64,000 nt of DNA from Lentimicrobiaceae bacterium (lineage in GTDB: Bacteria; Bacteroidota; Bacteroidia; Bacteroidales; JAAYJT01): assembly GCA_037445555.1 (NCBI GenBank), contig JBBIKG010000009.1, forward strand, positions 8,894-72,893. The letters are read 5' to 3'. The stretch's first letter is position 1; every line of letters starts with the position of its first letter. The position numbers and the translations under genes were made by a program. The notes beneath the pieces were generated by a model. It was not told the DNA's origin. It made no database searches and was given only the letters and a program-made list of their open reading frames with translations. This document shows, in pieces, positions 33,938 to 60,305 of this stretch.

Positions 33938-33939
33938 GA

Positions 33940-34308
33940 TCAGGACTTGTTTTTCAGTTGTTTGAAATATCTGGCTGTCAATACTTTCAACATTTCGCGG
34001 CGGATGACAAGATCCGCCAGACACAGGTGAGGGTCAGGGCTGTGCCTTAAACATTCATCCACCATTCCGGGCTTGAGATCGATCTGATAGAACAATGAAA
34101 ACAACGTGCCGGAGTTGTTCTGCAACAGAAGTTTGACGGCATCGCCGAGCTGAACCATTAGCTCATGATACGCCCCGGATGTATGTCCCGAAAAAGTTAT
34201 TTCAATACCAAACATGGCGAAATCCTTCGCGATCTGCTTTGCAGTGAGGTGAACCACTTCGGTGTTGTCCTGGTATTTCTCGACCGACAGATCCGGGAGC
34301 TCTTTCAT
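33940..34308 (-). CDS. hypothetical protein, 122 aa
   Basis: Clean ORF fitted exactly between neighbours. Its ATG directly abuts the upstream TAA, and its stop is 2 nt before the murU ATG. No recognisable motif. Confidence 0.55.
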   Translation of the reverse strand: MKELPDLSVEKYQDNTEVVHLTAKQIAKDFAMFGIEITFSGHTSGAYHELMVQLGDAVKLLLQNNSGTLFSLFYQIDLKPGMVDECLRHSPDPHLCLADLVIRREMLKVLTARYFKQLKNKS

Positions 34309-34440
34309 TTAACTCTTTTTCGTTTTTTCGGGTTTGCAGAGTACGTCCGCCTTTGGGGCTGTCAGGCTGCATTTGGCGCAGGTAAACTTACCTTTCTTCG
34401 GCGTGGCGTACTTTTTCTTTTCACATGCTTTCTTACTCAC
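34309..34440 (-). CDS. unannotated 43-codon Lys-rich Cys4 small ORF (VSKKACEKKKYATPKKGKFTCAKCSLTAPKADVLCKPEKTKKS)
   Basis: The GTG start overlaps the kinase stop (GTGA) and the TAA stop abuts the next ATG (TAAATG). The ORF therefore fills the whole 128-nt spacer in frame. It is below the 60-aa cut-off of the track. Confidence 0.4.
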   Translation of the reverse strand: MSKKACEKKKYATPKKGKFTCAKCSLTAPKADVLCKPEKTKKS

Positions 34441-35873
34441 TGTCCCTTACTTAACTCCTGGTGTTTCACAACAACACGAACCCCCGGCTGGTTGTTCAGC
34501 CACATCGCTATAGCTTCGGCACAATACACCGAACGATGTCTACCTCCTGTGCATCCGAAATTTAGCTGCAAATGCGAATAGCCCTTTTGGTGATAACTTT
34601 TTAAAGCCTGAAGCAAGATCAATTTCACAGAATCTAAAAATGAGCTGGTTTCGGGTTGGGTTTCAAGGTAGTCCGCCACATCCGTATCCCGGCCTGTCAG
34701 AGCTTTATATTCTTCAAGAAGGCCAGGATTGGGCAACAGACGGCAGTCGAAAACAAAACCGCCTCCGTTGCCACTAGCATCATAGGGAATACCACGCCGA
34801 TACGAAAAGCTATTCAGTTCGATAGTCAATCCCTGAACTTCAGTTTGGGTTCCGCTCATATCTTGATAGGTTATATCAGTTATAATACGTTTAATTTCAG
34901 GAAGTTGGCTCATAAGCCTCTTTTGAGCGAGCAGCCAACTGATGTTAGGCTTGAGATTATTGATGCTCTCAAGAAAATGGGGTTTGCGCTCAAACCAACC
35001 CCTGTAACCATAGGCTCCCATCACCTGAAGTTGCCTGAGCAGAACAAACACCGGCAACTGGCTGTGGAGTTTGTTTTTATCGTAACCCAGTTTTTCTTCA
35101 ATGATTGCGGCATAATTGTCAAAGAGTTCAGCCCGCAGGTTTTGACTGAGCTGAGCACTCACTTGGTAGAGTAGCGAAACGATATCATAAAGCAACGGGC
35201 CACGACGCCCTCCCTGGTAATCAATAAAAAGGAACTGACCGGCTTGTATCATGACATTTCTTGCCTGAAAATCCCGGTACATAAAACCTACCGGAGTGTC
35301 CTGTGTGGCGAATTTTATGAGGGTTTCAAAGTCGTTTTCAAGGGCGCCTTCTTCGAAATAGATGGATGAGGGCTTTAGAAAGCAATACTTAAAATAATTC
35401 ATATCCCACATCATGCCATGCCGGTCGAACTCGGGAATGGGAAGCTTGTTAAAGTCAAGGCCAATGGCTCCATCAATCTGAAAGCGGGATAATTGCCTGA
35501 TCGCTTCGTAATACTGTGCAGCGATATCGCTTTCACTGCGATTATTTGGTTTTGATGTGAGCGAGCTGAATAACGATTGGTCTCCGGCATCCTGTAGCAG
35601 GCATACTCCGTGTTGGGGATCATTGGCTATGAGAGCTGGAACCGGTAAACGCCTGTCCATAAAATGCCTGGTCAGAAATATAAAAGCCTGGTGGTCCCGG
35701 TGGTCGGGGTTTATGGAGCCGATCACGGATTGCCCTTGCCCCAACATCCGGTAATACCTCCGCTGCGAACCCGATTGTGCCAATGGGCTGACCGCACTGG
35801 GTTCATATCCGAAAGTTCGGGTAAATAACAGGAGTAAATGGTTACTGTAGGTATGAGCGTCTTTGGGAGGCAT
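34437..35873 (-). CDS. fusion protein: AmgK-type (APH-fold) amino-sugar anomeric kinase + RapZ C-terminal domain
   Basis: The N-terminal ~340 aa carry YRDFQARNVM and FIDYQGG kinase blocks. The C-terminal ~130 aa match RapZ C-domain blocks: LTIELNSFSYRRGIP, FVFDCRLLPNPG and FGCTGGRHRSVYCAE. The track start is TTG 35888. Confidence 0.8.
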   Translation of the reverse strand: MPPKDAHTYSNHLLLLFTRTFGYEPSAVSPLAQSGSQRRYYRMLGQGQSVIGSINPDHRDHQAFIFLTRHFMDRRLPVPALIANDPQHGVCLLQDAGDQSLFSSLTSKPNNRSESDIAAQYYEAIRQLSRFQIDGAIGLDFNKLPIPEFDRHGMMWDMNYFKYCFLKPSSIYFEEGALENDFETLIKFATQDTPVGFMYRDFQARNVMIQAGQFLFIDYQGGRRGPLLYDIVSLLYQVSAQLSQNLRAELFDNYAAIIEEKLGYDKNKLHSQLPVFVLLRQLQVMGAYGYRGWFERKPHFLESINNLKPNISWLLAQKRLMSQLPEIKRIITDITYQDMSGTQTEVQGLTIELNSFSYRRGIPYDASGNGGGFVFDCRLLPNPGLLEEYKALTGRDTDVADYLETQPETSSFLDSVKLILLQALKSYHQKGYSHLQLNFGCTGGRHRSVYCAEAIAMWLNNQPGVRVVVKHQELSKGQ

Positions 35874-36056
35874 CTTGCAAGCATACAATTATATTCTTCA
35901 AAGGTAGAAAATCAGCCCGTGACATCTGATTTATTTGCCGTGGTGTCAAATAAATTTTAGAAATGAGCCACATTTTCGAAAAAAACGTTGTAAGTGTTAG
36001 GTAATGTAGAGAAATGCACTACCTTTACGCCGTTTTTAATTTAATTTTTTCCGTTT

Positions 36057-42762: not shown

Positions 42763-44382
42763 TTAGAAGCTATACTCAATGCCGAGGGCAATCACAGAAG
42801 CCGAGCGATTGTATGTTTCCTGATAGTATTCCTTACTGGTGCCAAATGGGACGGCAGCGGTCTTGAAATCCTGAATGTACCAGGTGTTCATACCACCCAG
42901 ATTGATGCTAAGCTTATCATTGTGTATATACTTGATACCGCCTCCAAGGCTGTTGGTCGAAAGGCTGTGACTCTGATCGCTCTGATACATTGAATTCACT
43001 CCCGTCTGGGTTCTCAGGTATCCGAGGCTGAGAACGAACTTGTCGAAGAGGGTATATTCAAGCCCGCCAGCCGCTTCCCAGAGGTTTTTATCAATCACCA
43101 CTTTGTTTTCAACAAAACTTCCACCCACTTTTTTGCCATAATCGGCCTGCCGATCGAGATACATGTGGTATCCGCCATGCAGCTTCAGGTTATCAGTAGC
43201 CTGAACCGATATGCCGGCAGCTAGCATTGAAGGCATATCGTTCGGAGTTTCGGCGCCATCGGGGAACAGATTCACATCATCCTTGGTAGTTTTGTTTACC
43301 ACGTTCATGCTGGCACGATGCTCATACTTAAGACCAATATTCACTTGGTCTGATACTTTGAAATTCACGCCTATGATGGGAACAAAACCTGAACCTGTCT
43401 GTTTGGCATCCAGCTCTTTGTCCTTGGTGCCGTTTGCGTTGTTAGTCATGGCTGTGGCATTGGCTGCATAGGATGCCGATGCTCCGTCAAAAAAGGCTTT
43501 GGCCTGTGCAATGGTCATATTTGCAGGGCTTCCTCCAAGTGAGGTAATGGTGCCCTGAAGCTGTGAAATCTGAGCGGCCGTCAGCCCGGCAGCCGTGCCA
43601 TTGGACAGAAGCACTCCACCACCGCCCGCATTGATAATCGGCTGAAGCGAAGTACCCGTACCAGCCAATACGGTAGAGAGGTTTGAAAGGTAAGCCGAAA
43701 AAGCAGTGAAGAAGTCCGTCGCCTTGACCATGTTGCCTGTAAAGCCGGCAGCCGGGAAGTTCGGATTGATCTGAATGTTCTTCAAATACCCATTATACGA
43801 ATTTGAGATACTCAGGTAGCGCAGGCCTACGGCAACCGAAAGCTGATCGTTTACTTGGTAAGCGGCTGTTCCCTGTACACCCCAGATAATAGATTTAGCT
43901 TGAAAATCAACATCCATTGAGTATTTTGTGGTGGTAACTCCGGCGGCTGTCAGCGATCTCGGTAATGTGGCAGGCTGGTTTTCGAGTGAGGGCAGCCCGT
44001 CCTCGAAGGCTGCACTGCCGCCACCTCCAATCGGGTTTACCGAAAGGGCGAAAGCCAGTTTGTTTTTCTTGTATACTCCGTACAGTGAAGGGAAAAGGGG
44101 TGCAGTAACTCCACCCACAAACTCTTTGGTATTGGCGGGTAGATAGGAGTTGCCGATGGTGCGGGTTTGCTTGATATACTGATTGTTTACCGACAGATGG
44201 AATCCATCTCTGAGAAACGAAATTCCTGCCGGATTATAATACACGGCCTCGATACCGAGGGTGGCATCCTGAGCTGGCATGCGAATAAACGATGCGCTCT
44301 GGTTGGTGTTGGTGACAATGCCACCGGCTAGAACGATGGCGGAAATTGCTGCGAAACCTAGGGTGAATAATGCTTTTTTCAT
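42763..44382 (-). CDS. outer-membrane transport protein, OMPP1/FadL/TodX family
   Basis: Signal peptide, N-terminal hatch consensus NTNQSASFIRMPAQDATLGIEAVYYNPAGISFL, beta-strand periodicity and the C-terminal ...GIEYSF. Contains a Gly/Ala/Thr/Ser-rich insert of about 120 aa. The track start is 44418. Confidence 0.72.
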   Translation of the reverse strand: MKKALFTLGFAAISAIVLAGGIVTNTNQSASFIRMPAQDATLGIEAVYYNPAGISFLRDGFHLSVNNQYIKQTRTIGNSYLPANTKEFVGGVTAPLFPSLYGVYKKNKLAFALSVNPIGGGGSAAFEDGLPSLENQPATLPRSLTAAGVTTTKYSMDVDFQAKSIIWGVQGTAAYQVNDQLSVAVGLRYLSISNSYNGYLKNIQINPNFPAAGFTGNMVKATDFFTAFSAYLSNLSTVLAGTGTSLQPIINAGGGGVLLSNGTAAGLTAAQISQLQGTITSLGGSPANMTIAQAKAFFDGASASYAANATAMTNNANGTKDKELDAKQTGSGFVPIIGVNFKVSDQVNIGLKYEHRASMNVVNKTTKDDVNLFPDGAETPNDMPSMLAAGISVQATDNLKLHGGYHMYLDRQADYGKKVGGSFVENKVVIDKNLWEAAGGLEYTLFDKFVLSLGYLRTQTGVNSMYQSDQSHSLSTNSLGGGIKYIHNDKLSINLGGMNTWYIQDFKTAAVPFGTSKEYYQETYNRSASVIALGIEYSF

Positions 44383-44596
44383 GTTTTCTGTTTTGGTTAG
44401 CAGGGCAAATTTAGACAACTTTGTGAAATTTCCAAATCAATAAGTAATTTTTACAATCTCATTGTCTTGTATGTGAGATAATTATTTCCGGAGAGGCTTT
44501 TCTTGAGTTCTTGAAACTGATCCCCTTAATACTGGCAGACTATTTGTGTACATTAGGCGTTTATAGATATGGACTGATAAAAACCCATTACTACTT

Positions 44597-48176: not shown

Positions 48177-49604
48177 TCATTCCTTTTGCCTGAGTTCAAA
48201 TTTTATTTCGCTGATTATTTCCGGGATAGATTCTTCTAGGTAGTCCAACAATTCGAGTATTTTTCCTGCTTTGTATTTGTTTTGCATAACCCGACGAGCT
48301 GACTCAACAATCTTGTTTTTAAGCTGTTCGCGTGGTTGCTTGTCTTCCATGAACTGGGCAACCTCCGTGAACCAAAACAGAATAGGCATGTATACTGAGG
48401 TGCCGATGATTTTTTTCTCTTTTTCGGTCAGATTGTATCGTTTTGCCAGCCAAAGCAACTTAGCGTATTTAGATGCGCTTATCAACGCTTGGGCATAAGC
48501 CGAGAAAAACAGATGCCACCGGGTTTCAAATATTTCTTTCTTATAAGCCTCAAAAAATGTAGTGGCATAGCTGACGGCGTTTTTTGCCTTTCCGTTGTAA
48601 ATGAGCGTACGAATATAGAAACTTACGAAACCGATCTTATTGTAGTAGCTGCTGGTTTTTTTTAGTTCCGGCATCGACTCATTCATGAGCGTTAAGGCTT
48701 TGGCGTATTTTTTACTGCGCAGCAATACTCCACACAGGTTGGCAAGGTAAAAAAGGTAGTCGCTGTTTTTCTGCCGTATGGAAAGATATCCGTAATGTTC
48801 GGCCAGGCTCAGTTCGTTCAGCTTGCTGTGCATCATGGCGCGGTTTGAGTAATAGTTGGCCAAAACCCTTTTTGAGTAGAATGCACCGTTCGTAAATTCC
48901 TTATCAAGCGCATTATACAGCGATCTGAGGTTCTCAAATTCCCGGTAGTTGTAAAACAAAAAAGTGAGCCTTACTGCTGCCCGGTAGCGGGTGTACCCGT
49001 CAAGGGTATTGTCATTAAAAGTGTCGAGCAGGAATGCGCTGAAATGGATAGGTTCGGCATCTAGAGTTTCATGTTGCCGGATGATTTCCTCGGCTGCCCT
49101 GTCGAGCTGGTTGTTTATGGCTATGCTGCGCTGGTATGAGCCTTGATGCGCCTGAAGATAGTTACTGGTAATTTTATGATATCTGGTACGGACCCGAATC
49201 AGCAGGAAATCTCTGAAATACTGAAGTAATTCATAAAACTTAAGAAAATAATAATGCGATGGGGTAATCATACGTACGAACGAAATGATCTGTTTTTCTT
49301 CCTCGGGCAGTATCGAATCAGTCATCACCTGCTTTTCGGTAGCCAGCAGCCATTCATAAAATTTATCTACCTCTTCATGGTCCAGGGTTTCAGTAATCCA
49401 ACCTTTTATATATGAATACACGCGCTTATCGATTCCCTGATCGAATGGCAACTGATTTTCAGGATGATGGGAGTTGTGGTGTATGATTTGGAGGATGGCT
49501 CGGTTATTTTCCTTAACAAATCTGCTGCGGCCAAGCAGCAGGTCGGTTTCATGGGGATACAACTTACCTGCAAAATCAACAAAAGCTGTAAGCTTATGTT
49601 TCAT
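48177..49604 (-). CDS. hypothetical all-helical (TPR-like) protein, about 475 aa
   Basis: Long intact ORF, visibly more AT-rich and richer in Lys/Tyr/Phe/Asn than its neighbours, with no catalytic or binding motif recognised. ATG 49628 lies inside the upstream terminator, so ATG 49604 is preferred. Confidence 0.5.
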   Translation of the reverse strand: MKHKLTAFVDFAGKLYPHETDLLLGRSRFVKENNRAILQIIHHNSHHPENQLPFDQGIDKRVYSYIKGWITETLDHEEVDKFYEWLLATEKQVMTDSILPEEEKQIISFVRMITPSHYYFLKFYELLQYFRDFLLIRVRTRYHKITSNYLQAHQGSYQRSIAINNQLDRAAEEIIRQHETLDAEPIHFSAFLLDTFNDNTLDGYTRYRAAVRLTFLFYNYREFENLRSLYNALDKEFTNGAFYSKRVLANYYSNRAMMHSKLNELSLAEHYGYLSIRQKNSDYLFYLANLCGVLLRSKKYAKALTLMNESMPELKKTSSYYNKIGFVSFYIRTLIYNGKAKNAVSYATTFFEAYKKEIFETRWHLFFSAYAQALISASKYAKLLWLAKRYNLTEKEKKIIGTSVYMPILFWFTEVAQFMEDKQPREQLKNKIVESARRVMQNKYKAGKILELLDYLEESIPEIISEIKFELRQKE

Positions 49605-49626
49605 ATTTTTTTGCCATGAAAATAAC

Positions 49627-49654
49627 AAAAAAGGAGGCGTGTCGCAGCCTCCTT
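49627..49654 (-). terminator. rho-independent terminator after the exported hydrolase
   Basis: 8-bp stem AAGGAGGC / GCCTCCTT with an 8-nt loop. On the minus strand it runs into TTTTTTGTTATTTT. Confidence 0.72.
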
Positions 49655-49678: not shown

Positions 49679-50644
49679 CTACTCGAGAAATGTTTTCACT
49701 TCGCTGTTAAACACCTCGGGTTTTTCGAACATCATAAAATGCCCGCACTTGGGCACCATAATCAGCTTGCTCCCTCTAATGAGCGATGCTCCATGCTCCG
49801 CCACCTTACGGGTGGTGCCCGGATTAAGATATCTATTGGGGATTAGCATATCGTTTTCGCCAAAAAAGATCAAGGTTGGCTTATCGAGGCCGGGCAGTTT
49901 TTCGAGTACAGGCTCATCCACCATGCCGGCTACTGATCTCGATACAGTAAGGCAATACGCATCAAAATCGCTGGCAGTGCGCATAGCGATGCGATCTTCA
50001 ATCATGAATGCTGCGTCTTTCGGCATGCGGAAAAAATTGCTGGCCAGATTGGTTTCGATGGCATCCACCGGTGTAAGGCGCACCATGTTTGGAAACATCA
50101 CCTCCTTGAACCAGTTTTTTTGGCCGGGATGAAAAGCCTCAAATCCTGCCGGATCCACAAGTATCAGTCGTTTGACCAAGTCGGGTTTTTCGAGGGCGAG
50201 CACCAATGCAATCTGCCCGCCCATTGAGTGGCCGGCCAGGTTGACCTGACCAAGGTTTAACTGAGCTATTAGCTCGGAAATAACCGAAGCATAAAACGAC
50301 ATCAACCCGCTATGCGGATTTTTTGATGATTTTCCGTATCCCGGCAAATCAACAGCAATCACCCTGTACGCTTTGCTCAGTTCGCTGATGTTTTTCTTCC
50401 AGGCAGGCATGTAACTTCCCAAACCATGTATCATTATAATGGTTTCATCTCCTTTTCCCTGGTCAGTGTAGGCCAGTGTGATGTCGTTGCCAAGCCGGGC
50501 ATATTTTACCGGGAATCCGTAATCCATCTCGTTCATCGACGTCAGCTTCGGGAGGTTTTTGTATGGGGTGCATGCCATTGCTGACAGCAGAATTATGAGT
50601 GCTGTTATTTTAATAGATTGAATTGTTTTCATGGTTCGTTGCAT
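49679..50644 (-). CDS. exported (probably lipidated) alpha/beta-hydrolase
   Basis: Signal peptide ...ALIILLSAMAC, oxyanion-hole IMIHGLGS, nucleophile elbow GHSMGG and a late His (CGHFMMFE). 321 aa. Confidence 0.8.
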   Translation of the reverse strand: MQRTMKTIQSIKITALIILLSAMACTPYKNLPKLTSMNEMDYGFPVKYARLGNDITLAYTDQGKGDETIIMIHGLGSYMPAWKKNISELSKAYRVIAVDLPGYGKSSKNPHSGLMSFYASVISELIAQLNLGQVNLAGHSMGGQIALVLALEKPDLVKRLILVDPAGFEAFHPGQKNWFKEVMFPNMVRLTPVDAIETNLASNFFRMPKDAAFMIEDRIAMRTASDFDAYCLTVSRSVAGMVDEPVLEKLPGLDKPTLIFFGENDMLIPNRYLNPGTTRKVAEHGASLIRGSKLIMVPKCGHFMMFEKPEVFNSEVKTFLE

Positions 50645-50653
50645 TTCAGGTCA

Positions 50654-52270
50654 TTAAAACATCAGCCATTTGTATACGAGAAAAGTCGTGTAGGGATACA
50701 CAGGGCGTTCCATCATGTTTCCGTTCACCGGATATCCTCTGCTGTTATCCCTGCTGTCGTAGAATTTTCCAAGCCAAAGGTAGGCTCCGTGAAGTTCGAG
50801 ACTCATAAAAGGACCGAAATTATAGCTAAGCGCGGCATTAAGCTCGGCACCCATGAAACGCCCTCCGCCATTGGGCGCCAGTGGACTGGAGGCAACTGCC
50901 AGGCCTGTTTTTGCGTTGATCCTGTGAGGAATAATATCGTAAGCTAAATTGGCAGTACCACCCAACAGGCCATAGCCCATATTTGACAGGTCCGAAATGG
51001 CCGGAGTATAGCGATTGACTACGTTTGCATGCGGAAATAGCAGATAACCGCCGGTTCCGACGAAAATGGTCGTAGGCATGCCCCAGTAATTACCGGTCAC
51101 AACGCCGGTATATTTGTTGTCGTCAAGACCATATTTGTCAGGCGAGGCAAAAATGAAATCCGCTGAAAAATAGTCGTTCAGCGTACGTCCATAACGATAG
51201 GCAGCCCTGATGTTGGCTCCCACTCCTGCTATATCAGCAGCTTTCTCGTAAGTGCCTTTCACATTTTTTCGTGCAGAACCGAGATTAACATTCACGAAAC
51301 CGGTAAGCTGAAAGGGGTCCAGCCAGAAGTCGGGATTGCGGCTGACAGTAGCTCCCAACCAAACAATATCGGCCCGATATTCACGCTGAAGCGGAAACAC
51401 ATATGCTCCGTTGTAAGTGGCTAGCAAACTTGTCAGCCCCTGACTGAAAACAGATACACCACCCTGGCCTTTGCCGCGGTCACGCACATAATACAACGAG
51501 GCTCCGGCATTCCAAAGCATACTGAGTTTTCTGTGATACACAAGTTCGGCCAGTGTCACATCATCATCAATCTCGGTATTGTTCTCATACAGGATGTAAT
51601 ACCCAGCCTTTGCTTTTTGCACATCGCCATCATAGCGGGCAGTGATGCCCACGGCGTCCGTGCCCCAATAGGCCAGCCTGTAGCCTGTAGTAGTCATCTT
51701 GTCGAACATGGTGCGATAGGGATTGTAAGGAGTGTCGAACAGTCGCTGTAACCCCAAATTAATGGCAAAATCCTTGGCAGGTATCAGTTCCAGTTCTATG
51801 TTCTGGGTCTGGATGTTCACGTTATCGGCATTGATGGCAGCTCCTTTGTTTCCGCCTATACCATAGTTTTGATCGCCCCAGGTCCAGTCAATTTCAAATG
51901 AAGCTCTGAGTAACGCCTTACCATTGAATAATTTTGGCTGGTAAATGAAAAAAGGGATGATCCGCTGTTCCACATAATTTGATACCATGGTGTCGGATGT
52001 GGCAGATGAGTTTCCTCCAAACAACCTCCCTACCAACTGCCCGTTGAAAAGGCTGGCTGAGGGGTATACATTCGTTCTCACCCCCTGGTTAATGAAGAAC
52101 GCCAGAAACTGGAACTCACGGTTCGCTCTGACATTGTATGGCAGGTCATGCGAAAATAACGTAAACCTGTTTCCGGCAGAGTACCCTTTATCCTCTCCGG
52201 TTTGGGCAATGACCGAAAGACCCACCATGCTCATCAGGAGGACAGCCGATAGATACAGTATTTTTTTCAT
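50654..52270 (-). CDS. outer-membrane beta-barrel protein, family not assigned
   Basis: Signal peptide ...LSVIAQ, pervasive alternating hydrophobic/aromatic beta-strand pattern, and the C-terminal ...LVYKWLMF (terminal Phe, an OMP signature). 538 aa. Confidence 0.55.
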   Translation of the reverse strand: MKKILYLSAVLLMSMVGLSVIAQTGEDKGYSAGNRFTLFSHDLPYNVRANREFQFLAFFINQGVRTNVYPSASLFNGQLVGRLFGGNSSATSDTMVSNYVEQRIIPFFIYQPKLFNGKALLRASFEIDWTWGDQNYGIGGNKGAAINADNVNIQTQNIELELIPAKDFAINLGLQRLFDTPYNPYRTMFDKMTTTGYRLAYWGTDAVGITARYDGDVQKAKAGYYILYENNTEIDDDVTLAELVYHRKLSMLWNAGASLYYVRDRGKGQGGVSVFSQGLTSLLATYNGAYVFPLQREYRADIVWLGATVSRNPDFWLDPFQLTGFVNVNLGSARKNVKGTYEKAADIAGVGANIRAAYRYGRTLNDYFSADFIFASPDKYGLDDNKYTGVVTGNYWGMPTTIFVGTGGYLLFPHANVVNRYTPAISDLSNMGYGLLGGTANLAYDIIPHRINAKTGLAVASSPLAPNGGGRFMGAELNAALSYNFGPFMSLELHGAYLWLGKFYDSRDNSRGYPVNGNMMERPVYPYTTFLVYKWLMF

Positions 52271-52367: not shown

Positions 52368-53195
52368 TTAGTTGGTGCGTACAAATTTCTGGATATTGAT
52401 GGTGCCCAGTGTCCCCCCGTTTGAACTGCCAAAGCCTCCGGCTGGTGTTGGAGGAGTATTTTGAGTACCGGAAGTTTGAACTATTTCGTACCACAATACT
52501 TCCGGATTGGTCTTAATTTCAAAGATGCCCGCAGCCGTAGCTACATAGGGTTCGGCCTGGTTGATATCAATGGTCCATATATTTCCGACCACAGATTTAT
52601 TGATCTGATAGGTGCCTCTAAAGATCAGGTTCGGTGTGGTAGTTGTGTTACCAATGTTGAATTGGTTCACGATGTAGGTGTAGTCCGTTTTGAATTCGGC
52701 GGTGACTTTTGCCACGTTGAAATAGGTAACAAGAAGAGGAGCCACATTGGTTCCTTCACTGAGCCATTTACCCATGATGGCAAGTTCTTTGGTCGCTACG
52801 TTTGATTCAATGGACTGAGCTGCATCCATGGCCGCTCCGTCGGCATCATAAACCGATGTAGCCGAAGCAGGTTTAACCAAAAACTTGCTGTTTTCAGGAA
52901 CCACTGAAGTAATGGTAAGGGTGATTAGTGCTGTGTTGGTTCCGGCAGTATGTGTTACAATATAGGTAAACACTACGCCGGCAGGTGCTGTAACAGTAAG
53001 ATTGGAAGCCGATAACCCGCCGGTTTTGTTGGCACTGGCGTACACGTCCTCGGTAAAGAGTACTGTAAGGGTTTTGTTGTCTGCCGACAATGTAGCTGAC
53101 TTGAATTTCGGTGACTGATTTTCTTCAGTGCATGAAGAAAACCCAAGAACAAGAGCCATTAGAATGAAAAGTGGAAATAAAGGAATACGTTTCAT
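52368..53195 (-). CDS. lipoprotein with Ig-like N-domain and lipocalin-like C-domain
   Basis: Lipobox LGFSSC followed by acidic TEEN. The N-terminal half is Thr/Ala-rich beta strands. The C-terminal half has a GKWLSEG...GTYQI...WTIDI...GIFEI...LWYEIV pattern typical of lipocalin-like domains. Confidence 0.6.
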   Translation of the reverse strand: MKRIPLFPLFILMALVLGFSSCTEENQSPKFKSATLSADNKTLTVLFTEDVYASANKTGGLSASNLTVTAPAGVVFTYIVTHTAGTNTALITLTITSVVPENSKFLVKPASATSVYDADGAAMDAAQSIESNVATKELAIMGKWLSEGTNVAPLLVTYFNVAKVTAEFKTDYTYIVNQFNIGNTTTTPNLIFRGTYQINKSVVGNIWTIDINQAEPYVATAAGIFEIKTNPEVLWYEIVQTSGTQNTPPTPAGGFGSSNGGTLGTINIQKFVRTN

Positions 53196-53372: not shown

Positions 53373-54407
53373 CTATCCTCCCCATCTTATTACATTTGCA
53401 CCCCAGGCGTATCCTATGCCGGCAGCCACCATCGATACCACCGTGCCTTCGGCCACCAACTTCTGTTGCACTGCCAGGTGAAGTGAAAGAATGGGGTCAA
53501 TCTGACCCAGGTGCCCATAGTGTTCAAGATAGATGGATTGATCTGCGCTAAGGCCTAGCTCGGTGACAAAACTTTGATACATCGAACGTTTAAAGTGGAG
53601 AGCAGCCAGGTATCCCAGCCTGTCTCTCGATATCCCTGATTTGATGAATGCCTTTTCAATACAGGTCATCCAGTTGTTCATCGAGACAAGGTTCAGGCGG
53701 CTTTTCATGTGTTTCTCATCAAATAATCGCAAAGACTTATATGCCAGGTGAACATTTTCAGCGTTGATAGGTTTCTCTGTACCGCCGTACTCTACCCCGG
53801 CATCGCGGGCCATCGTTCCATCTGTGATAATATGTGTGCCAAATAAAAGGTTCTTACCATGGTCTCTTTTAAGCAGGATGGCGCCTCCCCCTGCACCTAG
53901 GTTATACATAAAAGAAATGGAACTGTCGGTATAGTCGATAAAATCACCGTTACGATACCCCCCGGCAATCATTACTGTCTTGATTTCAGGGTCGGACAAC
54001 ATCATGTCTTTGGCTATTTTCATAGCGGCAACGGCAGAGCAGCAACGCTGCTGCAGGTCAATAGCCCAGGCATTGTCAGCCCCCAACCGCTGTTGGATAT
54101 ATATACCCGAGGTCGTCAGCGGATATTCTTTCCATTCTTCCCCGATGCAAAGTATCAGGTCGATTTCAGAAGGCTTCATGCCGCTGTTGCGCAGGCAATC
54201 AATAGCTGCCAGGGCACCCATTTCCTGCGTGCCGTCACCTGGTCCGGGTATGGCTTTTTCAACGATACCCAGTTTTTGCACAATAGCCTTCTCATCCCAT
54301 TTTCCGTCTGTGGCGTCGGCAATCTGGGCCGCACTCATGCGGGCAGACGGAATATATATTCCCGTAGATATAATCCCTACATTCTGCTGATCATCTGTTG
54401 ATTTCAT
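53373..54407 (-). CDS. KAS III (FabH)-fold protein, non-canonical active site (Cys / His / His)
   Basis: Hand-aligned to E. coli FabH: DLQQRCCSAV at Cys112, AALHFKRSM at His244, and HYGHLGQID at Asn274 (Asn replaced by His). The track start is TTG 54476. ATG 54407 is preferred. Confidence 0.72.
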   Translation of the reverse strand: MKSTDDQQNVGIISTGIYIPSARMSAAQIADATDGKWDEKAIVQKLGIVEKAIPGPGDGTQEMGALAAIDCLRNSGMKPSEIDLILCIGEEWKEYPLTTSGIYIQQRLGADNAWAIDLQQRCCSAVAAMKIAKDMMLSDPEIKTVMIAGGYRNGDFIDYTDSSISFMYNLGAGGGAILLKRDHGKNLLFGTHIITDGTMARDAGVEYGGTEKPINAENVHLAYKSLRLFDEKHMKSRLNLVSMNNWMTCIEKAFIKSGISRDRLGYLAALHFKRSMYQSFVTELGLSADQSIYLEHYGHLGQIDPILSLHLAVQQKLVAEGTVVSMVAAGIGYAWGANVIRWGG

Positions 54408-54423
54408 AACAAAGGATTCAGTA

Positions 54424-55431
54424 TCAGTACACAAATACACTTCCTCCAACGGCCAGCCCTGCCCCTGAAGCCACAAATATCACACGGTCGCCACGTCGTA
54501 TACGGCCTTCGCCCACGGCATGATGAAAGGCCATAGGTACGCATCCCGAACCCGTATAGCCATATTTGTCCATCACAGTAGTGGTTTTGCCCGGATCAGC
54601 GCCTAAAATTTCCATCACCCGTTTGATTACCGAGTGATTAATCTGTGTAAAAATATAGTGGTCAATCTGTTCTTTTTCAAGATGGTACTTCTGAAGAAGC
54701 TTTTCCACTACCATCGGCCAAAGACGTACATTGCGTTCGCCTGGAAGAGGCTTCAGGCTAAGAAGGCCCTGCCTGTTTTCGTCCAGTACCTTGAGGGTTA
54801 CTGGCTCATGTGTGCCTCCGGCGTACACGCCGATAAAGTCATGCTGTGTGCCGTCGGTTAACAATTGACTGCCGATGTAGTAAGAGCCTGAGCCTGTGTT
54901 TCTTTCCAGAACAACGGCTCCTGCGCCATCAGCAAAGATGGAGTAACCAAATGCATCATCTTTCCTCAGATAAGCGGGCATATTATACACACCAACCACC
55001 ACTGCATAGCGAATTGCTTCATCCGTGGCCATTATGCGGGCGACATTATCGAGGGCAATGGTAAAACTGGCACAGGATGCTGACACATCAAACGTCGATG
55101 CCCAGGTTTCCTTTCCCTGAAGCCTGCCCTGCAAAAGGATAGATGTGGCAGGAGTGATGTACTCAGGAGTGTCGGTGGCGACAATGATCAGATTCAGGTC
55201 TTCAGCGTTGATACCTGCATTACGCAAGGCCTGCTCAGCAGCAAAGGTGGCAAAATCTGCTGTGGTTTCATTCAGGTTGCGCAAATGAGCGATGTGCCGC
55301 GAATAGATACCTAGCTTACTTTCGAGTTTGGCGGCATCTATTTCAAGCCCTGTCAGCTGTTGAAGCTCTTTGTTGGGTATAGGGCTTCCTGGAGCGTAAA
55401 TCCCTGATCCTATGATTCTTACTGGTAACAT
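54424..55431 (-). CDS. KAS III (FabH)-fold protein, non-canonical active site (Cys / Thr / Tyr)
   Basis: FDVSASCASF at Cys112, IFADGAGAVVL conserved, IFTQINHSV where FabH has VPHQANLRI, and KYGYTGSGC where FabH has RHGNTSAAS. Confidence 0.75.
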   Translation of the reverse strand: MLPVRIIGSGIYAPGSPIPNKELQQLTGLEIDAAKLESKLGIYSRHIAHLRNLNETTADFATFAAEQALRNAGINAEDLNLIIVATDTPEYITPATSILLQGRLQGKETWASTFDVSASCASFTIALDNVARIMATDEAIRYAVVVGVYNMPAYLRKDDAFGYSIFADGAGAVVLERNTGSGSYYIGSQLLTDGTQHDFIGVYAGGTHEPVTLKVLDENRQGLLSLKPLPGERNVRLWPMVVEKLLQKYHLEKEQIDHYIFTQINHSVIKRVMEILGADPGKTTTVMDKYGYTGSGCVPMAFHHAVGEGRIRRGDRVIFVASGAGLAVGGSVFVY

Positions 55432-55440
55432 ATTTAAATT

Positions 55441-56751
55441 TTACAGATAACCTAGCCTTTGAGCCTGTTCTTTAAGGACATTACGAAAGTCGGGATGAGC
55501 TATGGAGATAAGTGCGAGGGTCCTCTCCTTAATGGTACGTCCTGTAAGGCGAACGCTTCCCCATTCGGTTACAATGTAATCAGTATTGCTGCGGTGCAGG
55601 GTTACGGCGGTTCCCTCAGGCAGCACAGGAACAATTGTCGAGATCTGGCCGTTGCGGGCGGTAGAGCGACAGGCTATAATCGATTTGCCTTGTCCGTCGG
55701 TACCTTCGATGGCACCGGCTGCTGTATCGGTTTGCCCTCCTGTACCCGAGTACTGTTCGGTGCCGATCGATTCGCTGGCTACCTGGCCGGTAAAATCAAT
55801 CATCAGGCAGGTATTGATCGAAACCATTTTCCTGTTTTGTTTGACGACACAGGGGTCATTCACATACTTGCCTCGCAGAAACTCCACCGCCATGTTGTTG
55901 TTGAGCCACTTGTAAAGTTTCTCGCTTCCCATGGCAAACGTACATATGAATTTGTCCTTATGTATAGACTTGTGCTTGTTGGTGATTACACCGGCTTCGT
56001 AAAGCTCCATCATGCTGTCAACAAACATTTCGGTATGTACCCCAAGGTCTTTTTTGTTTTTCAGCGACAGAGCGCAGGCATTCGGTATTTCCCCAATGCC
56101 AAGCTGAATGGTAGATCTGTCTTCCACCAGGTCAGCGATATACTGACCTATGCGCATGGCCGTTTCGTCAGGTGCCGGAGCCGGAAGGGTAGGAGGTGTT
56201 TGCGGGTATTCCACAAAATAATCCACCTCCGAGACATGCACATGGGTGTCGCCAAAGGTGCGCGGCAATTGTTCATTAACCTCCAGAACCACAATGTCTG
56301 CCGCCTCAAGAATGTCTTTTTCATAGGTGATGCCAAGCGAAAGCGAAACATAACCTTTTTCATCCGGAGGGGTACATGTGCCAAAAAACAGGTGGGGATT
56401 GCGTACTTTAAGACGGTCAGTGGCAGCTCGGTGCAACATGTTCGGAACGTATGTCACCGTACCCGTTTTTGCCTTCACAGCCTGACGTGAGCCACCGGCA
56501 TGAAACCAGCTGCACAGCTCGAAATGTCCCCTCATTTCGGGAAGAATGTAGAAATCATAGGGCTTGAGCGTCAGTACCGAGAACACTTTGACATTCTGAA
56601 CTCTTTCTTTAACAATATGAAACCTTGACATGCAACCCTGAGGTTCGCTCGCACATTGGGCTACTATTACATCGCTATCACTTCGTATCAGGCTTATGGC
56701 TTCGTCGATAGTGATAAGTTTACTTTTATAATGCGACTGAAAGGATCTCAT
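55441..56751 (-). CDS. acetyl-CoA hydrolase/transferase-family enzyme (4-hydroxybutyrate / butyryl-CoA:acetate CoA-transferase type)
   Basis: 436 aa with IQLGIGEIPNA, VHTEMF, SINTCLMIDFTGQVASESIG and GTGGQTD blocks. The start overlaps the symporter stop (TAATG). Confidence 0.85.
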   Translation of the reverse strand: MRSFQSHYKSKLITIDEAISLIRSDSDVIVAQCASEPQGCMSRFHIVKERVQNVKVFSVLTLKPYDFYILPEMRGHFELCSWFHAGGSRQAVKAKTGTVTYVPNMLHRAATDRLKVRNPHLFFGTCTPPDEKGYVSLSLGITYEKDILEAADIVVLEVNEQLPRTFGDTHVHVSEVDYFVEYPQTPPTLPAPAPDETAMRIGQYIADLVEDRSTIQLGIGEIPNACALSLKNKKDLGVHTEMFVDSMMELYEAGVITNKHKSIHKDKFICTFAMGSEKLYKWLNNNMAVEFLRGKYVNDPCVVKQNRKMVSINTCLMIDFTGQVASESIGTEQYSGTGGQTDTAAGAIEGTDGQGKSIIACRSTARNGQISTIVPVLPEGTAVTLHRSNTDYIVTEWGSVRLTGRTIKERTLALISIAHPDFRNVLKEQAQRLGYL

Positions 56752-58313
56752 TAGGTTTGATTTTGTTTGTAAGCGGAAATTCGGGTGGTTATCAGATGGA
56801 TAGTCAGGCTTACGGCTACAGAGATGACTATAGCCATCGCTGCTGCCATAGCCGGATTTTGGGTTGATCCTGAAAAATACCTGTCAGCACTGCCCAGACT
56901 TATGGTATTGCCTTTAATCAGCACCGGAAGAATGTAGTAAATGGTAAAATATACTGTCATGGCAGTCAGTGATCCTGCTACCGCTGTAATAATCCTTACA
57001 CTTCTGATGAAGATCCCGAATACGATAGGAATGAAACATATAGAGAAAAATGAATACACTCCGTTTTGAGCAAAAATGGCAACACTTAGATTAGGGCGCA
57101 GCAGCTGCTCGCGCGAAGCCAAAAATGCTGCCAGTGCCATACCCGCTATTACGATTCTGTTGATGAGGATATATTTATTTTCATTGTGGATATGGGCACC
57201 AAATAAAGGCCTGATGATATCGGAGGTTACGGTAGTGCTCAGGCTTTGTATAAGGCCTTCGATGGTGGATAACCCGGCACTTAAAAGGCCCATAATTACT
57301 ATAAGCCCTATAGCGACCGCCATCCAGCCTTGCGAGAATACTTTGATGACATAGGCTGGGATGATTCCATCTACACCAAGCGCCCTGCCATTGGCCATCA
57401 GACCGGGGAATGTTATGCGGGCGTAGAGGCCTGTAACTACCACCGAATAAAACAATGCCTGGATCAGTACTGCTGCGACAAGAAATTTATTGACATCCGC
57501 TTCGCGCTTAAGCAACAGGGACTTGGTGATAATATGAGGCTGGCAGACAACGGCAGCCCCCACAATCATCTGCACCATAATGATTTCGAAAAAACTCCTG
57601 AACAAAGGACTGTTACCGTTTACTGGCTGTGTAAGCATCGGGTCAATAGTCCTGAGTTTGTCAAAAAAGCTCAGAACACCATCCTTCAGATACTCATAGC
57701 CTGAACATAAAAGGATGATGGCAACAGCTACCATTACAAACGCCTGCACGGTATTGGTATAGACCATGGAATTCGCTCCGCCGAACATCATGTAGCTGAA
57801 AACAAATGTAACGACGGCCAGTAATACCCATATCTCGTTCAGATTCAACGCCTGGCTGAGCACTTTGGTGATTGCAACCAGTATCAGCACTATAAATGTC
57901 AACAGTAAGACAGATAGAAAGGCAATGAACAATTTATAGGATTTGCTGTCGTAGCGGCTGCCTATCCATCCGGCCAACGTCATTGCCTTCACGCTGCTTC
58001 CGAATTTCCTGAAACTTTTTGTCAGTACGATCAGTGAAATCAGAGATGCCAGCGGAAAAAACACGCCGAATGACAGCACGGCGCTAAGGCCGTAGTTTGC
58101 AATCAGTCCGGGGTTAATCACAAAGGTGGCGGCGCTGGTCATGGCGGCTGCCAGCGACAGCCCGACAAACCACGGCGAGAAGTTGATCGAGCCCAAAGCG
58201 TAGTCACTGATACTGCGGGTTCTCAATGCTCCTCTGACAACAAAAAACAAGATGGCCGTGGCATAGGCTATAATTAAAATCCATCCGCCGATGACCTGTT
58301 CAGGGGTTGCCAT
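56751..58313 (-). CDS. sodium:solute symporter (SSS) family transporter
   Basis: 520 aa with about 13 TM helices and an SSS-like pattern. The substrate is not assignable. Confidence 0.78.
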   Translation of the reverse strand: MATPEQVIGGWILIIAYATAILFFVVRGALRTRSISDYALGSINFSPWFVGLSLAAAMTSAATFVINPGLIANYGLSAVLSFGVFFPLASLISLIVLTKSFRKFGSSVKAMTLAGWIGSRYDSKSYKLFIAFLSVLLLTFIVLILVAITKVLSQALNLNEIWVLLAVVTFVFSYMMFGGANSMVYTNTVQAFVMVAVAIILLCSGYEYLKDGVLSFFDKLRTIDPMLTQPVNGNSPLFRSFFEIIMVQMIVGAAVVCQPHIITKSLLLKREADVNKFLVAAVLIQALFYSVVVTGLYARITFPGLMANGRALGVDGIIPAYVIKVFSQGWMAVAIGLIVIMGLLSAGLSTIEGLIQSLSTTVTSDIIRPLFGAHIHNENKYILINRIVIAGMALAAFLASREQLLRPNLSVAIFAQNGVYSFFSICFIPIVFGIFIRSVRIITAVAGSLTAMTVYFTIYYILPVLIKGNTISLGSADRYFSGSTQNPAMAAAMAIVISVAVSLTIHLITTRISAYKQNQT

Positions 58314-58370: not shown

Positions 58371-59114
58371 CTAAATCGTTACTCCGCCATCCACACTCAG
58401 CACTGCACCGTTCACAAAAGCTGCTTCGCGGCTGGCCAGGTAAAGGTACGCAGCTGCTATTTCCTCGGGCTTTCCAAGACGCCCTGCCGGTGTTTTGTCT
58501 TTCATCGCTTGCAGAATATTTTCTGGCATCTTTGCCACCATTTCGGTTTCAATAAAACCGGGAGCCACGGCGTTGACGGTGATTCCTTTTCGTCCCAGTT
58601 CCTTTGCCAGGGTTTTGGTCATTCCGATCATTCCAGCCTTGGCAGCTACGTAGTTGGTTTGTCCAAAATTGCCATACAGCGCTACTACAGAAGAGGTATT
58701 GATGATCCTGCCGAAGTTTTTTTCCAACATATATCCTGCCACAACCCGTGTGCAGTTAAACACTCCGGTCAGGTCTACATCGATCACCTGCTGCCATAGG
58801 TCGGGGGTCATTTTTTTCAGAGTGCTGTCGCGGGTGATACCAGCATTGTTGATCAAAATATCGATTCGGCCGTATTTTGCGTAAACCTCAGCCGCAGCTT
58901 TTTCAACCATGTCGTACTTGGCTGTATTTACTCTCATGAATGCTGCTTCCATGCCTTGATGTAACAGTTCAGTGGCCAATGCCTGTCCCTTATCTTCATT
59001 AAGGTCCCAGATGACGACTTTAGCCCCTTCAGAGGCAAATAATTGCACGGCGGCTTTACCTATGCCATCGGCTCCGCCCGTGATGATGGCTACTTGTTCC
59101 AAGAGTTTTTTCAT
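58371..59114 (-). CDS. short-chain dehydrogenase/reductase, FabG / acetoacetyl-CoA reductase type
   Basis: TGGADGIGKA cofactor motif, NNAGI, and catalytic S...YVAAKAG. 247 aa. Confidence 0.88.
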   Translation of the reverse strand: MKKLLEQVAIITGGADGIGKAAVQLFASEGAKVVIWDLNEDKGQALATELLHQGMEAAFMRVNTAKYDMVEKAAAEVYAKYGRIDILINNAGITRDSTLKKMTPDLWQQVIDVDLTGVFNCTRVVAGYMLEKNFGRIINTSSVVALYGNFGQTNYVAAKAGMIGMTKTLAKELGRKGITVNAVAPGFIETEMVAKMPENILQAMKDKTPAGRLGKPEEIAAAYLYLASREAAFVNGAVLSVDGGVTI

Positions 59115-59123
59115 AGCTGTGAT

Positions 59124-60305
59124 TTATATTTGTTTGATTATCATGGATATACCTTGTCCGCCACCTATACAGAGGGTGGCCAGGCCGGTTTTTGCATGCC
59201 GGCGTTTCATTTCATAGAGCAAGGTAGTCAGGATGCGCGCCCCTGAGGCTCCGATAGGATGTCCGAGGGCTATGGCACCACCGTTTACGTTCACAATATC
59301 AGGGTTGATACCGAGGTCTTTTACCACAGCTATTGATTGCGCTGCAAACGCCTCATTAGCTTCAATCAGGTCGAGGTCCTCGATGGTTATTCCGGTTTTC
59401 TTCAACACTTTTCGTGTGGCAGGTACCGGGCCATAGCCCATGATGGCGTGGTTGAGACCCACATAGGCGCCGCCTGCAAATACTGCCATAGGCTCGATGC
59501 CAAGTTGCACGGCCTTCTCCCTGCTCATCACTACCACCATGCTGGCACCATCGTTGATTCCTGAAGCATTGCCTGCAGTCACAGTTCCGTCTTTTTTAAA
59601 AGCGGGTTTAAGTGCTGCCAGCTTGTCAAGGGTGAGTCCGTGACGCGGAAATTCATCGGCGTCCACAACCAAAGGCTCTCCCTTTCGCTGGGGGATCATC
59701 ACAGGTACAATTTCATCTTTGAATTTGCCTTCTTTCTGGGCTTTTTCGGTTTTGTGCTGACTATTCAGGGCAAATTCATCCTGCTCGATCCTTGAAATTC
59801 TCCACCTCTCGGCAATATTTTCGGCTGTGATGCCCATATGTACATTGTCGAAAACATCGGTAAGCCCGTCATAGATCATGCTGTCAATCAGGGTGGCATC
59901 TCCCATTCGATATCCCTGTCTGGCTTTTGTAAGCAGGTAGGGTGAGTTGCTCATGCTTTCGGTACCTCCTGCCAGCATAATTTCTGCCTCACCAAGCTGA
60001 ATGAGGTTAGCCGCCATCAGCACCGAACGCAGGCCCGATCCGCAAAGCTGGTTTATAGTGGTGGCAGGAACTTCTTCAGGGATGCCTGAATATACTGCAA
60101 CCTGCCTGGCAATATTTTGCCCGAGACCCGCAGAAAGGATATTGCCTATGATCACTTCATCAATCTGACCGGGGGCAATAGTTGCCCTGCGCATAGCTTC
60201 TGTTGCAGCAATTTTTCCAAGATCAACGGCACTGAGTGACGCTAATGAGCCGCCAAAGTTGCCGATAGCTGTCCTTACCGCCGATGCAATTACAACCTCT
60301 TTCAT
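59124..60305 (-). CDS. acetyl-CoA C-acetyltransferase (thiolase II)
   Basis: [10 protein letters not shown] (acyl Cys), [24 protein letters not shown] and [11 protein letters not shown]. 393 aa. Confidence 0.95.

Follow-up and report, generated by a model that had tools for sequence, protein, structure and literature searches.

In a 64,000-nucleotide stretch of the genome of a Lentimicrobiaceae bacterium (contig JBBIKG010000009.1 of assembly GCA_037445555.1, positions 8,894 to 72,893; hereafter the window), we observed two neighboring minus-strand open reading frames (ORFs) whose products carry the ACP_syn_III and ACP_syn_III_C Pfam domains of FabH, the ketoacyl-acyl carrier protein (ACP) synthase III (KAS III). 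We refer to them as KSA (54424-55431, 335 amino acids) and KSB (53373-54407, 344 amino acids). Both the pair and the 16-nt gap between its members are as an initial annotation of the window had described them, with the KSA stop codon TGA at 54424-54426, the KSB ATG at 54405-54407 and the spacer TACTGAATCCTTTGTT (54408-54423) in between. A TTG at 54476 in the program-made ORF list offers an alternative KSB start that would overlap KSA; the ATG fits the N termini of homologs and is the probable start. Despite their domains, KSA and KSB are probably not FabH-type initiators of fatty acid synthesis. We favor, with a probability of roughly 0.6–0.65, a reading in which they are non-condensing enzymes encoded in an operon for the catabolism of poly(3-hydroxybutyrate) (PHB) and 3-hydroxybutyrate esters.

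The AlphaFold monomer models of KSA and KSB, with predicted local distance difference test (pLDDT) values of 85 and 85.7, respectively, find their best Foldseek matches among FabH structures, at template modeling (TM) scores of 0.80–0.87 for KSA and 0.77–0.82 for KSB. The two proteins share with FabH the fold, the position of the catalytic cysteine and the glycine-rich oxyanion loop. They differ from it in the absence of the His244/Asn274 dyad, in scores below the family cut-offs, in a serine that hhalign places at the position of the ACP-docking Arg249 in both and in the lack of a fab context, with no ACP or fab gene among the operon genes. Against the FabH model TIGR00747 (cut-off 292 bits), KSA scores 167 bits and KSB 93 bits, and against NF006829 (cut-off 249 bits), the values are 188 and 108 bits. 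KSA stays under every NCBIfam cut-off, reaching 141 bits with NF005308 (PRK06840, named '3-oxoacyl-ACP synthase'); KSB scores 438.8 bits with this same model and lies above its cut-off of 315. The initial annotation had reported the His-Asn dyad as missing, and we likewise find no Cys-His-Asn triad in either protein. Because this triad is absent and no FabH cut-off is passed, we consider non-FabH chemistry very likely for both proteins. An identity as 3-hydroxy-3-methylglutaryl-CoA (HMG-CoA) synthase was also considered and rejected, as the matches are N-terminal and partial, at 62–69 bits against cut-offs of at least 244. A catalytic glutamate of the HMG-CoA synthase type in KSB (Glu90/91, in GEEWKEYP) was rejected because of the presence of serine at position 90 in 36 of the 72 KSB family representatives described below.

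In KSA, HMMER alignments to solved FabH structures and a MAFFT alignment place Cys120 (FDVSASC; codon at 55072-55074) on the catalytic cysteine of FabH, Thr262 (FTQINH) on His244 and Tyr292 (YGYTGS; 54556-54558) on Asn274, confirming the Cys/Thr/Tyr set of the initial annotation. We followed these positions through 242 KSA-type sequences, 120 from Bacteroidales and 122 from Firmicutes or spirochaetes, down to about 40% identity. Asp87, Cys120, Gln263 and Tyr292 are invariant in this set, and Thr262 (240/242; Thr262-Gln263 at 54643-54648) and Cys297 (241/242; 54541-54543) are nearly so. Since the constellation is near-invariant in 242 sequences, the KSA site appears to be functional rather than degenerate. 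By the alignments, neither this site nor that of KSB is a product of decay, and the KSA type forms a subfamily of its own. Its constellation of Cys, Thr-Gln and Tyr-x4-Cys is new. The database cluster representative P0001, which is listed as 100% identical to KSA, differs from it near the C terminus (GGNVFVY versus GGSVFVY, 54424-54440), a minor strain difference.

In KSB, Cys122 (the first cysteine of RCC; 54042-54044) falls on FabH Cys112 and His299 (YGHLGQ; 53511-53513) on Asn274 in phmmer and hhalign alignments. The cysteine is thus kept and the asparagine replaced by histidine, as had been annotated at the outset; the third part of that assignment, a retained FabH histidine, does not stand. 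His271 (LHFK; Leu270-His271 at 53595-53600) is placed on Gln245 of FabH, and Leu270 on His244, in every alignment that we made, namely two phmmer alignments, the hhalign alignment with FabH, the KSA–KSB hhalign alignment and a MAFFT alignment of 75 sequences. This register also agrees with where strands and helices begin and end in the AlphaFold models, and in the MAFFT alignment, distant relatives of KSB have Asn-Gln where FabH has His-Gln and KSB has Leu-His. As the register is drawn from alignments and model secondary structure, a one-residue local shift at His271 may occur in the real structure.

To describe the KSB family, we searched 1.8 billion representatives and obtained 170 family representatives at E ≤ 1e-30; residues were counted in the 72 that are full-length, at 50% identity clustering. 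The nucleophile is cysteine in 63 and serine in 7 of them (70/72 with either residue). His299 is kept in 63/72 and Asp304 (53496-53498) in 64/72, and position 271 is divided between histidine (36) and glutamine (27). Asp304 is invariant in 33 aligned family members at 26–47% identity, and PRK06840 as a whole keeps the cysteine (sometimes serine), the histidine and the His-x4-Asp pair. The end coordinates of HMMER alignments place KSB residues 299 and 304 on His296 and Asp301 of ChlB3 and, given a 3-residue construct offset, on His297 and Asp302 of DpsC, in which Asp302 is the paired residue. The initial annotation had pointed to CerJ and DpsC among FabH-fold proteins, and this pointer is apt for KSB, whose His-x4-Asp pair is that of the group. 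In the KSIII-like acyltransferases ChlB3 (Cys113/His296/Asp301) and CerJ, His-x4-Asp forms the catalytic pair, and DpsC has Ser118 with His266 and His297 (PMC9573744).

KSB thus resembles CerJ, ChlB3 and DpsC in its FabH fold, in a cysteine or serine nucleophile and in the replacement of the FabH asparagine by a histidine paired with an aspartate five residues on. The His299/Asp304 pair of KSB corresponds to His295 and its paired aspartate (D300 or D301) in CerJ, and with DpsC, KSB further shares a second histidine. These three proteins transfer acyl groups via an acyl-enzyme intermediate, instead of or besides condensing. They differ from KSB in that they belong to actinomycete secondary metabolism and act on ACP- or sugar-bound substrates, whereas KSB shares about 20% identity with them and belongs to a primary catabolic operon, found in anaerobes and haloarchaea, in which there is no ACP. 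KSA differs further in that it lacks the His-Asp pair and has Tyr-x4-Cys there instead. FabH remains the stronger match to KSB (4e-20) relative to ChlB3 (1e-10), DpsC (5e-10) and CerJ (1.5e-7, profile), and a PDB search with KSA gave no match to CerJ, ChlB3 or DpsC at 1e-5 or better.

KSA and KSB lie in the middle of a 10-gene operon, all on the minus strand. Its first gene, THL (59124-60305), encodes an acetyl-CoA C-acetyltransferase (thiolase) with Thiolase_N and Thiolase_C domains (485 bits with TIGR01930, cut-off 240) and is kept at this first position across Bacteroidales loci. SDR (58371-59114) encodes a FabG/PhaB-like 3-oxoacyl reductase that scores 300 bits with the FabG model NF004198 (cut-off 296) and 272 bits with the acetoacetyl-CoA reductase model TIGR01829 (cut-off 302). 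We take it to be a putative (R)-3-hydroxybutyryl-CoA dehydrogenase, the (R) specificity being suggested by its family. The sodium:solute symporter SSF (56751-58313; PF00474 at 3.6e-30) is the likely importer of an acid substrate, and a Liv-type ATP-binding cassette (ABC) importer takes its place in Firmicutes and haloarchaeal clusters. CoAT (55441-56751), with AcetylCoA_hydro and AcetylCoA_hyd_C domains, is a member of the 4-hydroxybutyrate CoA-transferase family; it matches the PDB entries 3eh7 (1e-102) and 3gk7 (5e-99), both 4-hydroxybutyrate CoA-transferases. An acyl-CoA synthetase substitutes for it in haloarchaea and in one Bacteroidetes locus, L082.

Downstream of KSB, the operon turns to the cell envelope. 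LIPO (52368-53195) encodes a lipoprotein of no known family with a signal peptide and cysteine (mature N terminus C-TEEN), possibly exposed at the surface, and OMP (50654-52270) a conserved, predicted outer-membrane protein, also of no known family, with an N-terminal signal peptide. ABH (49679-50644) encodes an α/β-hydrolase (Abhydrolase_1) that bears a lipoprotein signal as well as the serine motif GHSMGG and is likely an extracytoplasmic esterase. It gives partial, below-cut-off matches to the intracellular short-chain-length polyhydroxyalkanoate (scl-PHA) depolymerase model (7e-28) and to the PHB depolymerase in PDB entry 8ynv (2e-16); since all of its depolymerase matches fall below cut-off, its substrate is one that we infer. 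The last gene, U483 (48177-49628), encodes a 483-residue protein of no known family and is present in most Bacteroidales loci, in some of them upstream and inverted. Despite their conservation in more than 60 loci, LIPO, OMP and U483 have no match in Pfam or NCBIfam. LIPO is kept 3' of KSB across loci, and its Paludibacter ortholog carries a Big_2 domain. The C-TEEN sequence resembles the surface-export signal of Bacteroidota, which suggests a capture system like that of a polysaccharide utilization locus for a non-carbohydrate polymer.

A scan that took one genome per species recovered the same 10-gene order in 68 Bacteroidales loci, from Lentimicrobiaceae, Paludibacter, Tenuifilaceae, Salinivirgaceae, Rikenellaceae and others. 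In every one of these loci (68/68), KSA is the gene immediately 5' of KSB, with a spacer typically of 10–20 nt. The identities of loci L002-L081 to the window fall into two classes, of about 45–58% and about 62–77%. Among 46 complete operons, OMP and ABH co-vary at r = 0.90 but are only weakly correlated with the six cytoplasmic genes (r = 0.26–0.50), and the operon looks like two modules of separate history.

Outside the Bacteroidales, we examined neighborhoods of at most 10 kb on each side, often less. The conserved core consists of an importer, an α/β-hydrolase, a CoA-activating enzyme and a ketosynthase-like (KS) protein of one or both types. In Tissierellia (Soehngenia, Sedimentibacter and related metagenome-assembled genomes (MAGs)), the KSB proteins have about 70% identity to those of Bacteroidales, and the gene order is sigma-54 activator, hydrolase, KSB, CoA-transferase, hydrolase and Liv-type ABC importer. 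Within these flanks, no KSA-type gene accompanies KSB in 11 Tissierellia loci (about 10 genomes) or in the haloarchaeal loci. Five Firmicutes (Serpentinicella, Proteinivorax, Sporosalibacterium, Anaerobranca and Brassicibacter) have both types in the order KSB, CoA-transferase, KSA. Their clusters also encode hydrolases, an ABC importer and a sigma-54 activator, and three of the five add a MaoC (R)-hydratase. Conversely, the KSA type occurs with no KSB in the cluster in Natranaerobius, Anaerosporomusa and a Treponema. The Firmicutes clusters examined, including those of Tissierellia, and the haloarchaeal ones have no thiolase gene, and the haloarchaeal ones also have no reductase gene. Database searches with the KSA type and the KSB type each returned at least about 5,000 proteins at E ≤ 1e-10, likely including distant FabH-like relatives.

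The haloarchaeal members emerged from a metagenome scan with a narrow subfamily alignment. They form a distant KSB subfamily that passes PRK06840 at 421 bits and is haloarchaeal judging by its HTH_10/HVO_2525 regulator. In locus L115 (1312-11026) and about 20 similar metagenome loci (L084-L136), the PRK06840 homolog is accompanied by an α/β-hydrolase, an acyl-CoA synthetase, the HTH_10/HVO_2525 regulator and a Liv-type ABC importer. To our knowledge, archaea have no FabH-type fatty acid synthase, and a FabH-like gene there is unexpected. A variant in a Bacteroidetes MAG (L082:5163-15323) has an acyl-CoA synthetase in place of the CoA-transferase, a thiolase gene at the far end and a KSA-type gene (38% identity) between the reductase and the symporter. 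Some Firmicutes clusters also encode a protein of about 276 residues with an MCPsignal domain only and no sensor or transmembrane Pfam match (L001:6264-7094, L166:6772-7602 and L169:3397-4230); it lies between the hydrolase and KSB in L001 and L166 and between two binding-protein genes in the KSA-only locus L169.

The gene content of these clusters bears directly on the substrate. Our domain and model scan of the operon in the window found genes for a reductase and a thiolase and none for an acyl-CoA dehydrogenase or a hydratase, and for this reason the imported acid should already bear a 3-hydroxy group. In related clusters, the hydrolase adjoining KSB in Soehngenia longivitae (L070:9088-9969) and one in the Natranaerobius thermophilus cluster (L164:170-1054) pass the NCBIfam intracellular scl-PHA depolymerase equivalog (412 and 375 bits; cut-off 300), and the Treponema locus contains an extracellular type-1 scl-PHA depolymerase (L167:19411-20358; 187 bits against 150). 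The hydroxybutyrate-type CoA-transferase and these depolymerases point to PHB-derived 3-hydroxybutyrate esters. The name of one carrier, Serpentinicella sp. ANB-PHB4, hints at an anaerobic PHB isolate, from the name alone. The explanation that we judge best overall, and that we put forward tentatively, is that KSA and KSB are paralogous thiolase-fold acyl-Cys catalysts in the catabolism of PHB-derived (R)-3-hydroxybutyrate esters. As alternative substrates, phloroglucinol, 3-oxoadipate, acetoin and lactones received no specific support; the PcaD-like matches of the second hydrolase are below cut-off.

In the pathway that we propose, LIPO, OMP and ABH would capture and trim the polyester or its oligomers in the cell envelope, SSF would import 3-hydroxybutyrate or short oligomers and CoAT would form the CoA thioester. 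KSB, using Cys122 with His299-Asp304 (plus His271), would pass through an acyl-Cys intermediate as it exchanges a 3-hydroxyacyl group between CoA and an oxygen ester. Running the chemistry of CerJ and ChlB3 in the direction of cleavage, it would split oligomers in a CoA-dependent (thiolytic) manner to 3-hydroxybutyryl-CoA, which SDR and THL would turn into acetyl-CoA. KSA, with Cys120 and Tyr292-x4-Cys297 and no His/Asn, would be a second transacylase, either for another substrate or as a partner of KSB. We propose acyl transfer for KSB because it has a Cys-His-Asp set of the CerJ/ChlB3 type, because some of its relatives have a serine nucleophile and because no ACP is present. The KS enzymes must moreover add something to the pathway, since a 3-hydroxybutyrate monomer needs only the importer, the CoA-transferase, the reductase and the thiolase. 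The analysis shows the fold, the site residues with their conservation, the conserved operon and the PHA depolymerase genes of related clusters, and we infer which substrate is used, which way the reaction runs, thiolysis itself and the part played by KSA.

That KSB specifically carries out thiolysis is doubtful, and the same holds for the fuller proposal of a thiolase-fold 'ester thiolase', formed by KSB alone or together with KSA, that splits imported 3-hydroxybutyrate oligomers with CoA and so saves the energy of the ester bond. We estimate that a fermenter for which each CoA transfer costs one acetyl-CoA would obtain 3 rather than 2 ATP from a dimer if it used thiolysis instead of hydrolysis, and a gain of this kind would explain the strong conservation of the KS proteins. 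Two known enzymes offer parallels. PhaC has a set of the Cys-His-Asp type for ester–thioester exchange, and PhaZ1 (PhaZa1) of Ralstonia eutropha has the same net reaction that we propose, from ester and CoA to 3-hydroxybutyryl-CoA. Both of these enzymes differ in having the α/β-hydrolase fold, whereas KSA and KSB have the thiolase fold, in which the reaction is only hypothesized. For R. eutropha PhaZ1, the CoA-dependent thiolysis of PHB to 3-hydroxybutyryl-CoA has been reported (PMC3430594).

Several points weigh against the view that KSA and KSB are non-condensing enzymes of PHB-derived ester catabolism. The residue equivalences derive from sequence and profile alignment and from model secondary structure rather than from superposed coordinates. 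The role of the KS proteins is proposed by exclusion, the monomer route being complete without either of them. Because ABH in the window falls below the PHA depolymerase cut-off, PHB is assigned to this operon from the clusters of its relatives. The Natranaerobius cluster has KSA and no CoA-activating gene. Hydrolases encoded in the same clusters would compete with thiolysis, and ester-to-thioester exchange is uphill by roughly 10–15 kJ/mol, by our own estimate. In addition, the two histidines of KSB, His271 and His299, resemble those of DpsC (Ser-His-His) and of KAS I/II (Cys-His-His), enzymes that condense. Our literature searches yielded no biochemical or genetic evidence for any member of the family, nor any publication about PRK06840, about a KAS III-like enzyme in PHB metabolism or about strain ANB-PHB4.

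The initial annotation had instead offered KSA and KSB as a candidate PqsBC-like heterodimer. We consider it unlikely that they form an obligate complex of this kind, with one subunit mainly structural, for an unusual condensation or an acyl transfer. The model draws on the adjacency and common orientation of the two genes in all 68 Bacteroidales loci, usually 10–20 nt apart, on the presence of both types in the five Firmicutes clusters and on their mutual similarity, for KSA and KSB align with each other at 7e-30 in hhalign and share a GGTxxPxT lid motif, compared with only 1.5e-17 for KSB and FabH. Thiolase-fold enzymes are in general dimers, and PqsBC provides a precedent, consisting as it does of two distinct FabH-fold paralogs with non-canonical sites encoded side by side. 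PqsB is catalytically inert and has lost its catalytic residues, while PqsC has a Cys-His dyad. In contrast, KSA and KSB both keep the cysteine position, and the conservation of the nucleophile in each (Cys120 in 242/242 KSA-type sequences; Cys or Ser in 70/72 KSB family representatives) does not have the look of an inert scaffold. They also differ from PqsB and PqsC in pathway context, and the match to PqsC is weak (6e-9 and 1e-6), far weaker than that to FabH.

The distribution of the two genes speaks against an obligate complex as well. Within flanks of at most 10 kb, each type occurs alone in some lineages, KSB in Tissierellia and haloarchaea and KSA in Natranaerobius, Anaerosporomusa and Treponema, and in the five Firmicutes, the CoA-transferase gene splits the pair. 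We also carried out a mirror-tree analysis, correlating pairwise distances across the 46 complete operons, and found no covariation of KSA and KSB beyond that common to other operon genes; their correlation (r = 0.72, partial 0.33) is no higher than that of KSA with SSF (0.83) or of KSB with CoAT (0.79). A KSA–KSB heteromer in Bacteroidales is possible. The adjacency of the genes there and their frequent co-occurrence elsewhere fit a functional partnership, without establishing an obligate heterodimer.

Comparably unlikely, in our view, is that KSB acts on carbon–carbon bonds as a DpsC-like or KAS I/II-like enzyme with a cysteine and two histidines, performing Claisen or retro-Claisen chemistry on acetoacetyl-CoA or on a longer or branched 3-oxoacyl-CoA, and thus serves as a specialized thiolase or condensing enzyme of the pathway. 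The initial annotation had started from the premise that decarboxylative condensation by KAS III and type III PKS enzymes needs both histidine and asparagine. This is too strong, as the triad of KAS I/II is Cys-His-His and competent for decarboxylative condensation. In KSB, Asp304 parallels Asp302 of DpsC. Likewise, Cys122, His271 and His299 parallel Ser118, His266 and His297 (PMC9573744). The parallel is weakened by the position of His271, which falls at Gln245 rather than His244 of FabH and is glutamine in 27/72 representatives, and by the serine nucleophile in 7/72 family members, which is typical for acyl transfer. In the Tissierellia and haloarchaeal clusters, which have no thiolase gene, KSB could fill that step, and a reductase gene whose product would make 3-oxoacyl-CoA is present in the clusters of Bacteroidales and several Firmicutes. 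The Bacteroidales operon, however, already has a classical thiolase, and there is neither a source of malonyl units nor an ACP.

A biosynthetic operon is less likely still. Here, THL and SDR would act like PhaA and PhaB and supply (R)-3-hydroxybutyryl-CoA, with which KSA and KSB would O-acylate an acceptor or build oligo-3-hydroxybutyrate as a thiolase-fold analog of PHA synthase, with the envelope proteins handling the product. The THL/SDR pair is indeed the same as PhaA/PhaB, the Cys-His-Asp set of KSB parallels the PhaC triad and that of the ester-forming CerJ, and envelope genes lie downstream. Nevertheless, the importers (SSF, or a Liv-type ABC transporter with its binding protein) and the CoA-transferase or acyl-CoA synthetase indicate substrate-induced catabolism, as do the sigma-54 activators with PAS domains and the depolymerase genes of related clusters. 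The Firmicutes and haloarchaeal clusters examined, moreover, lack the thiolase, and the haloarchaeal ones also the reductase, that this route would use. Finally, that KSA and KSB are ordinary redundant FabH paralogs that start fatty acid synthesis, as the ACP_syn_III domains and FabH fold of both and the database name ketoacyl-ACP synthase III would have it, is highly improbable in view of the absent His-Asn dyad, scores of 167 and 93 bits against 292, a catabolic context with no fab genes or ACP nearby and close homologs in haloarchaea.

The operon also invites comparison with OleA/OleBCD and with the β-lactone systems LstAB/NltAB, in which one or more FabH-like proteins likewise co-occur with an α/β-hydrolase, an AMP-dependent ligase (here in L082 and haloarchaea) and a short-chain reductase of the SDR kind. 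Lst and Nlt use two adjacent OleA paralogs. OleA matches KSA at about 1e-18 over partial stretches. It differs in having a Cys-His-Asn triad and a trans-acting glutamate from the partner subunit, whereas KSA and KSB have no His/Asn dyad; the SDR here is of the FabG rather than the OleD type, and the importers, CoA-transferase and depolymerases argue for catabolism. We therefore rejected an OleABCD or lipstatin-like β-lactone or olefin pathway, given the absent OleA triad and the presence of these importers, CoA-transferase and depolymerases.

Two further observations concern other parts of the window. A FadL/TodX-like outer-membrane transporter (42763-44418; PF03349, 6.9e-10) is encoded 4 kb past the end of the operon, and by our reading of the ORF list, the genes in between are unrelated and include a HAD hydrolase-like ORF and CorA. 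At 33236-35888, a gene for a 483-residue protein that joins an APH-family kinase to a RapZ C-terminal domain adjoins an NTP_transferase gene, and the two are an AmgK/MurU-like pair with an unusual fusion.

Non-condensing enzymes with the FabH fold are already known; what is new here is the primary catabolic setting and the spread over Bacteroidales, Firmicutes, a spirochaete and haloarchaea. Few storage polymers of microbes are more abundant than PHB, which is also a commercial bioplastic, and the enzymes of its anaerobic breakdown are poorly described. The KSA and KSB types are two large families that are automatically annotated as 'ketoacyl-ACP synthase III'. If they act in acyl transfer during 3-hydroxybutyrate ester catabolism, many genome annotations and metabolic models would be wrong in counting them among the genes of fatty acid synthesis, and the operon would serve as a marker by which to find PHB-degrading anaerobes in digesters, sediments and hypersaline systems. 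A CoA-dependent, energy-conserving depolymerization would be of interest for recycling bioplastic to CoA-activated monomers, and the Cys/Thr/Tyr-x4-Cys site of KSA would widen the chemistry of the thiolase fold. Should KSB prove to cleave esters with CoA, PHB catabolism in anaerobes and haloarchaea would include a widespread step not described before, and the CerJ/DpsC-like branch would have its first role in primary metabolism, with KSA as a further catalytic type. Even if the enzymes were instead condensing in the manner of DpsC or thiolase-like, KSA and KSB would nonetheless represent a new branch of the family in primary metabolism.

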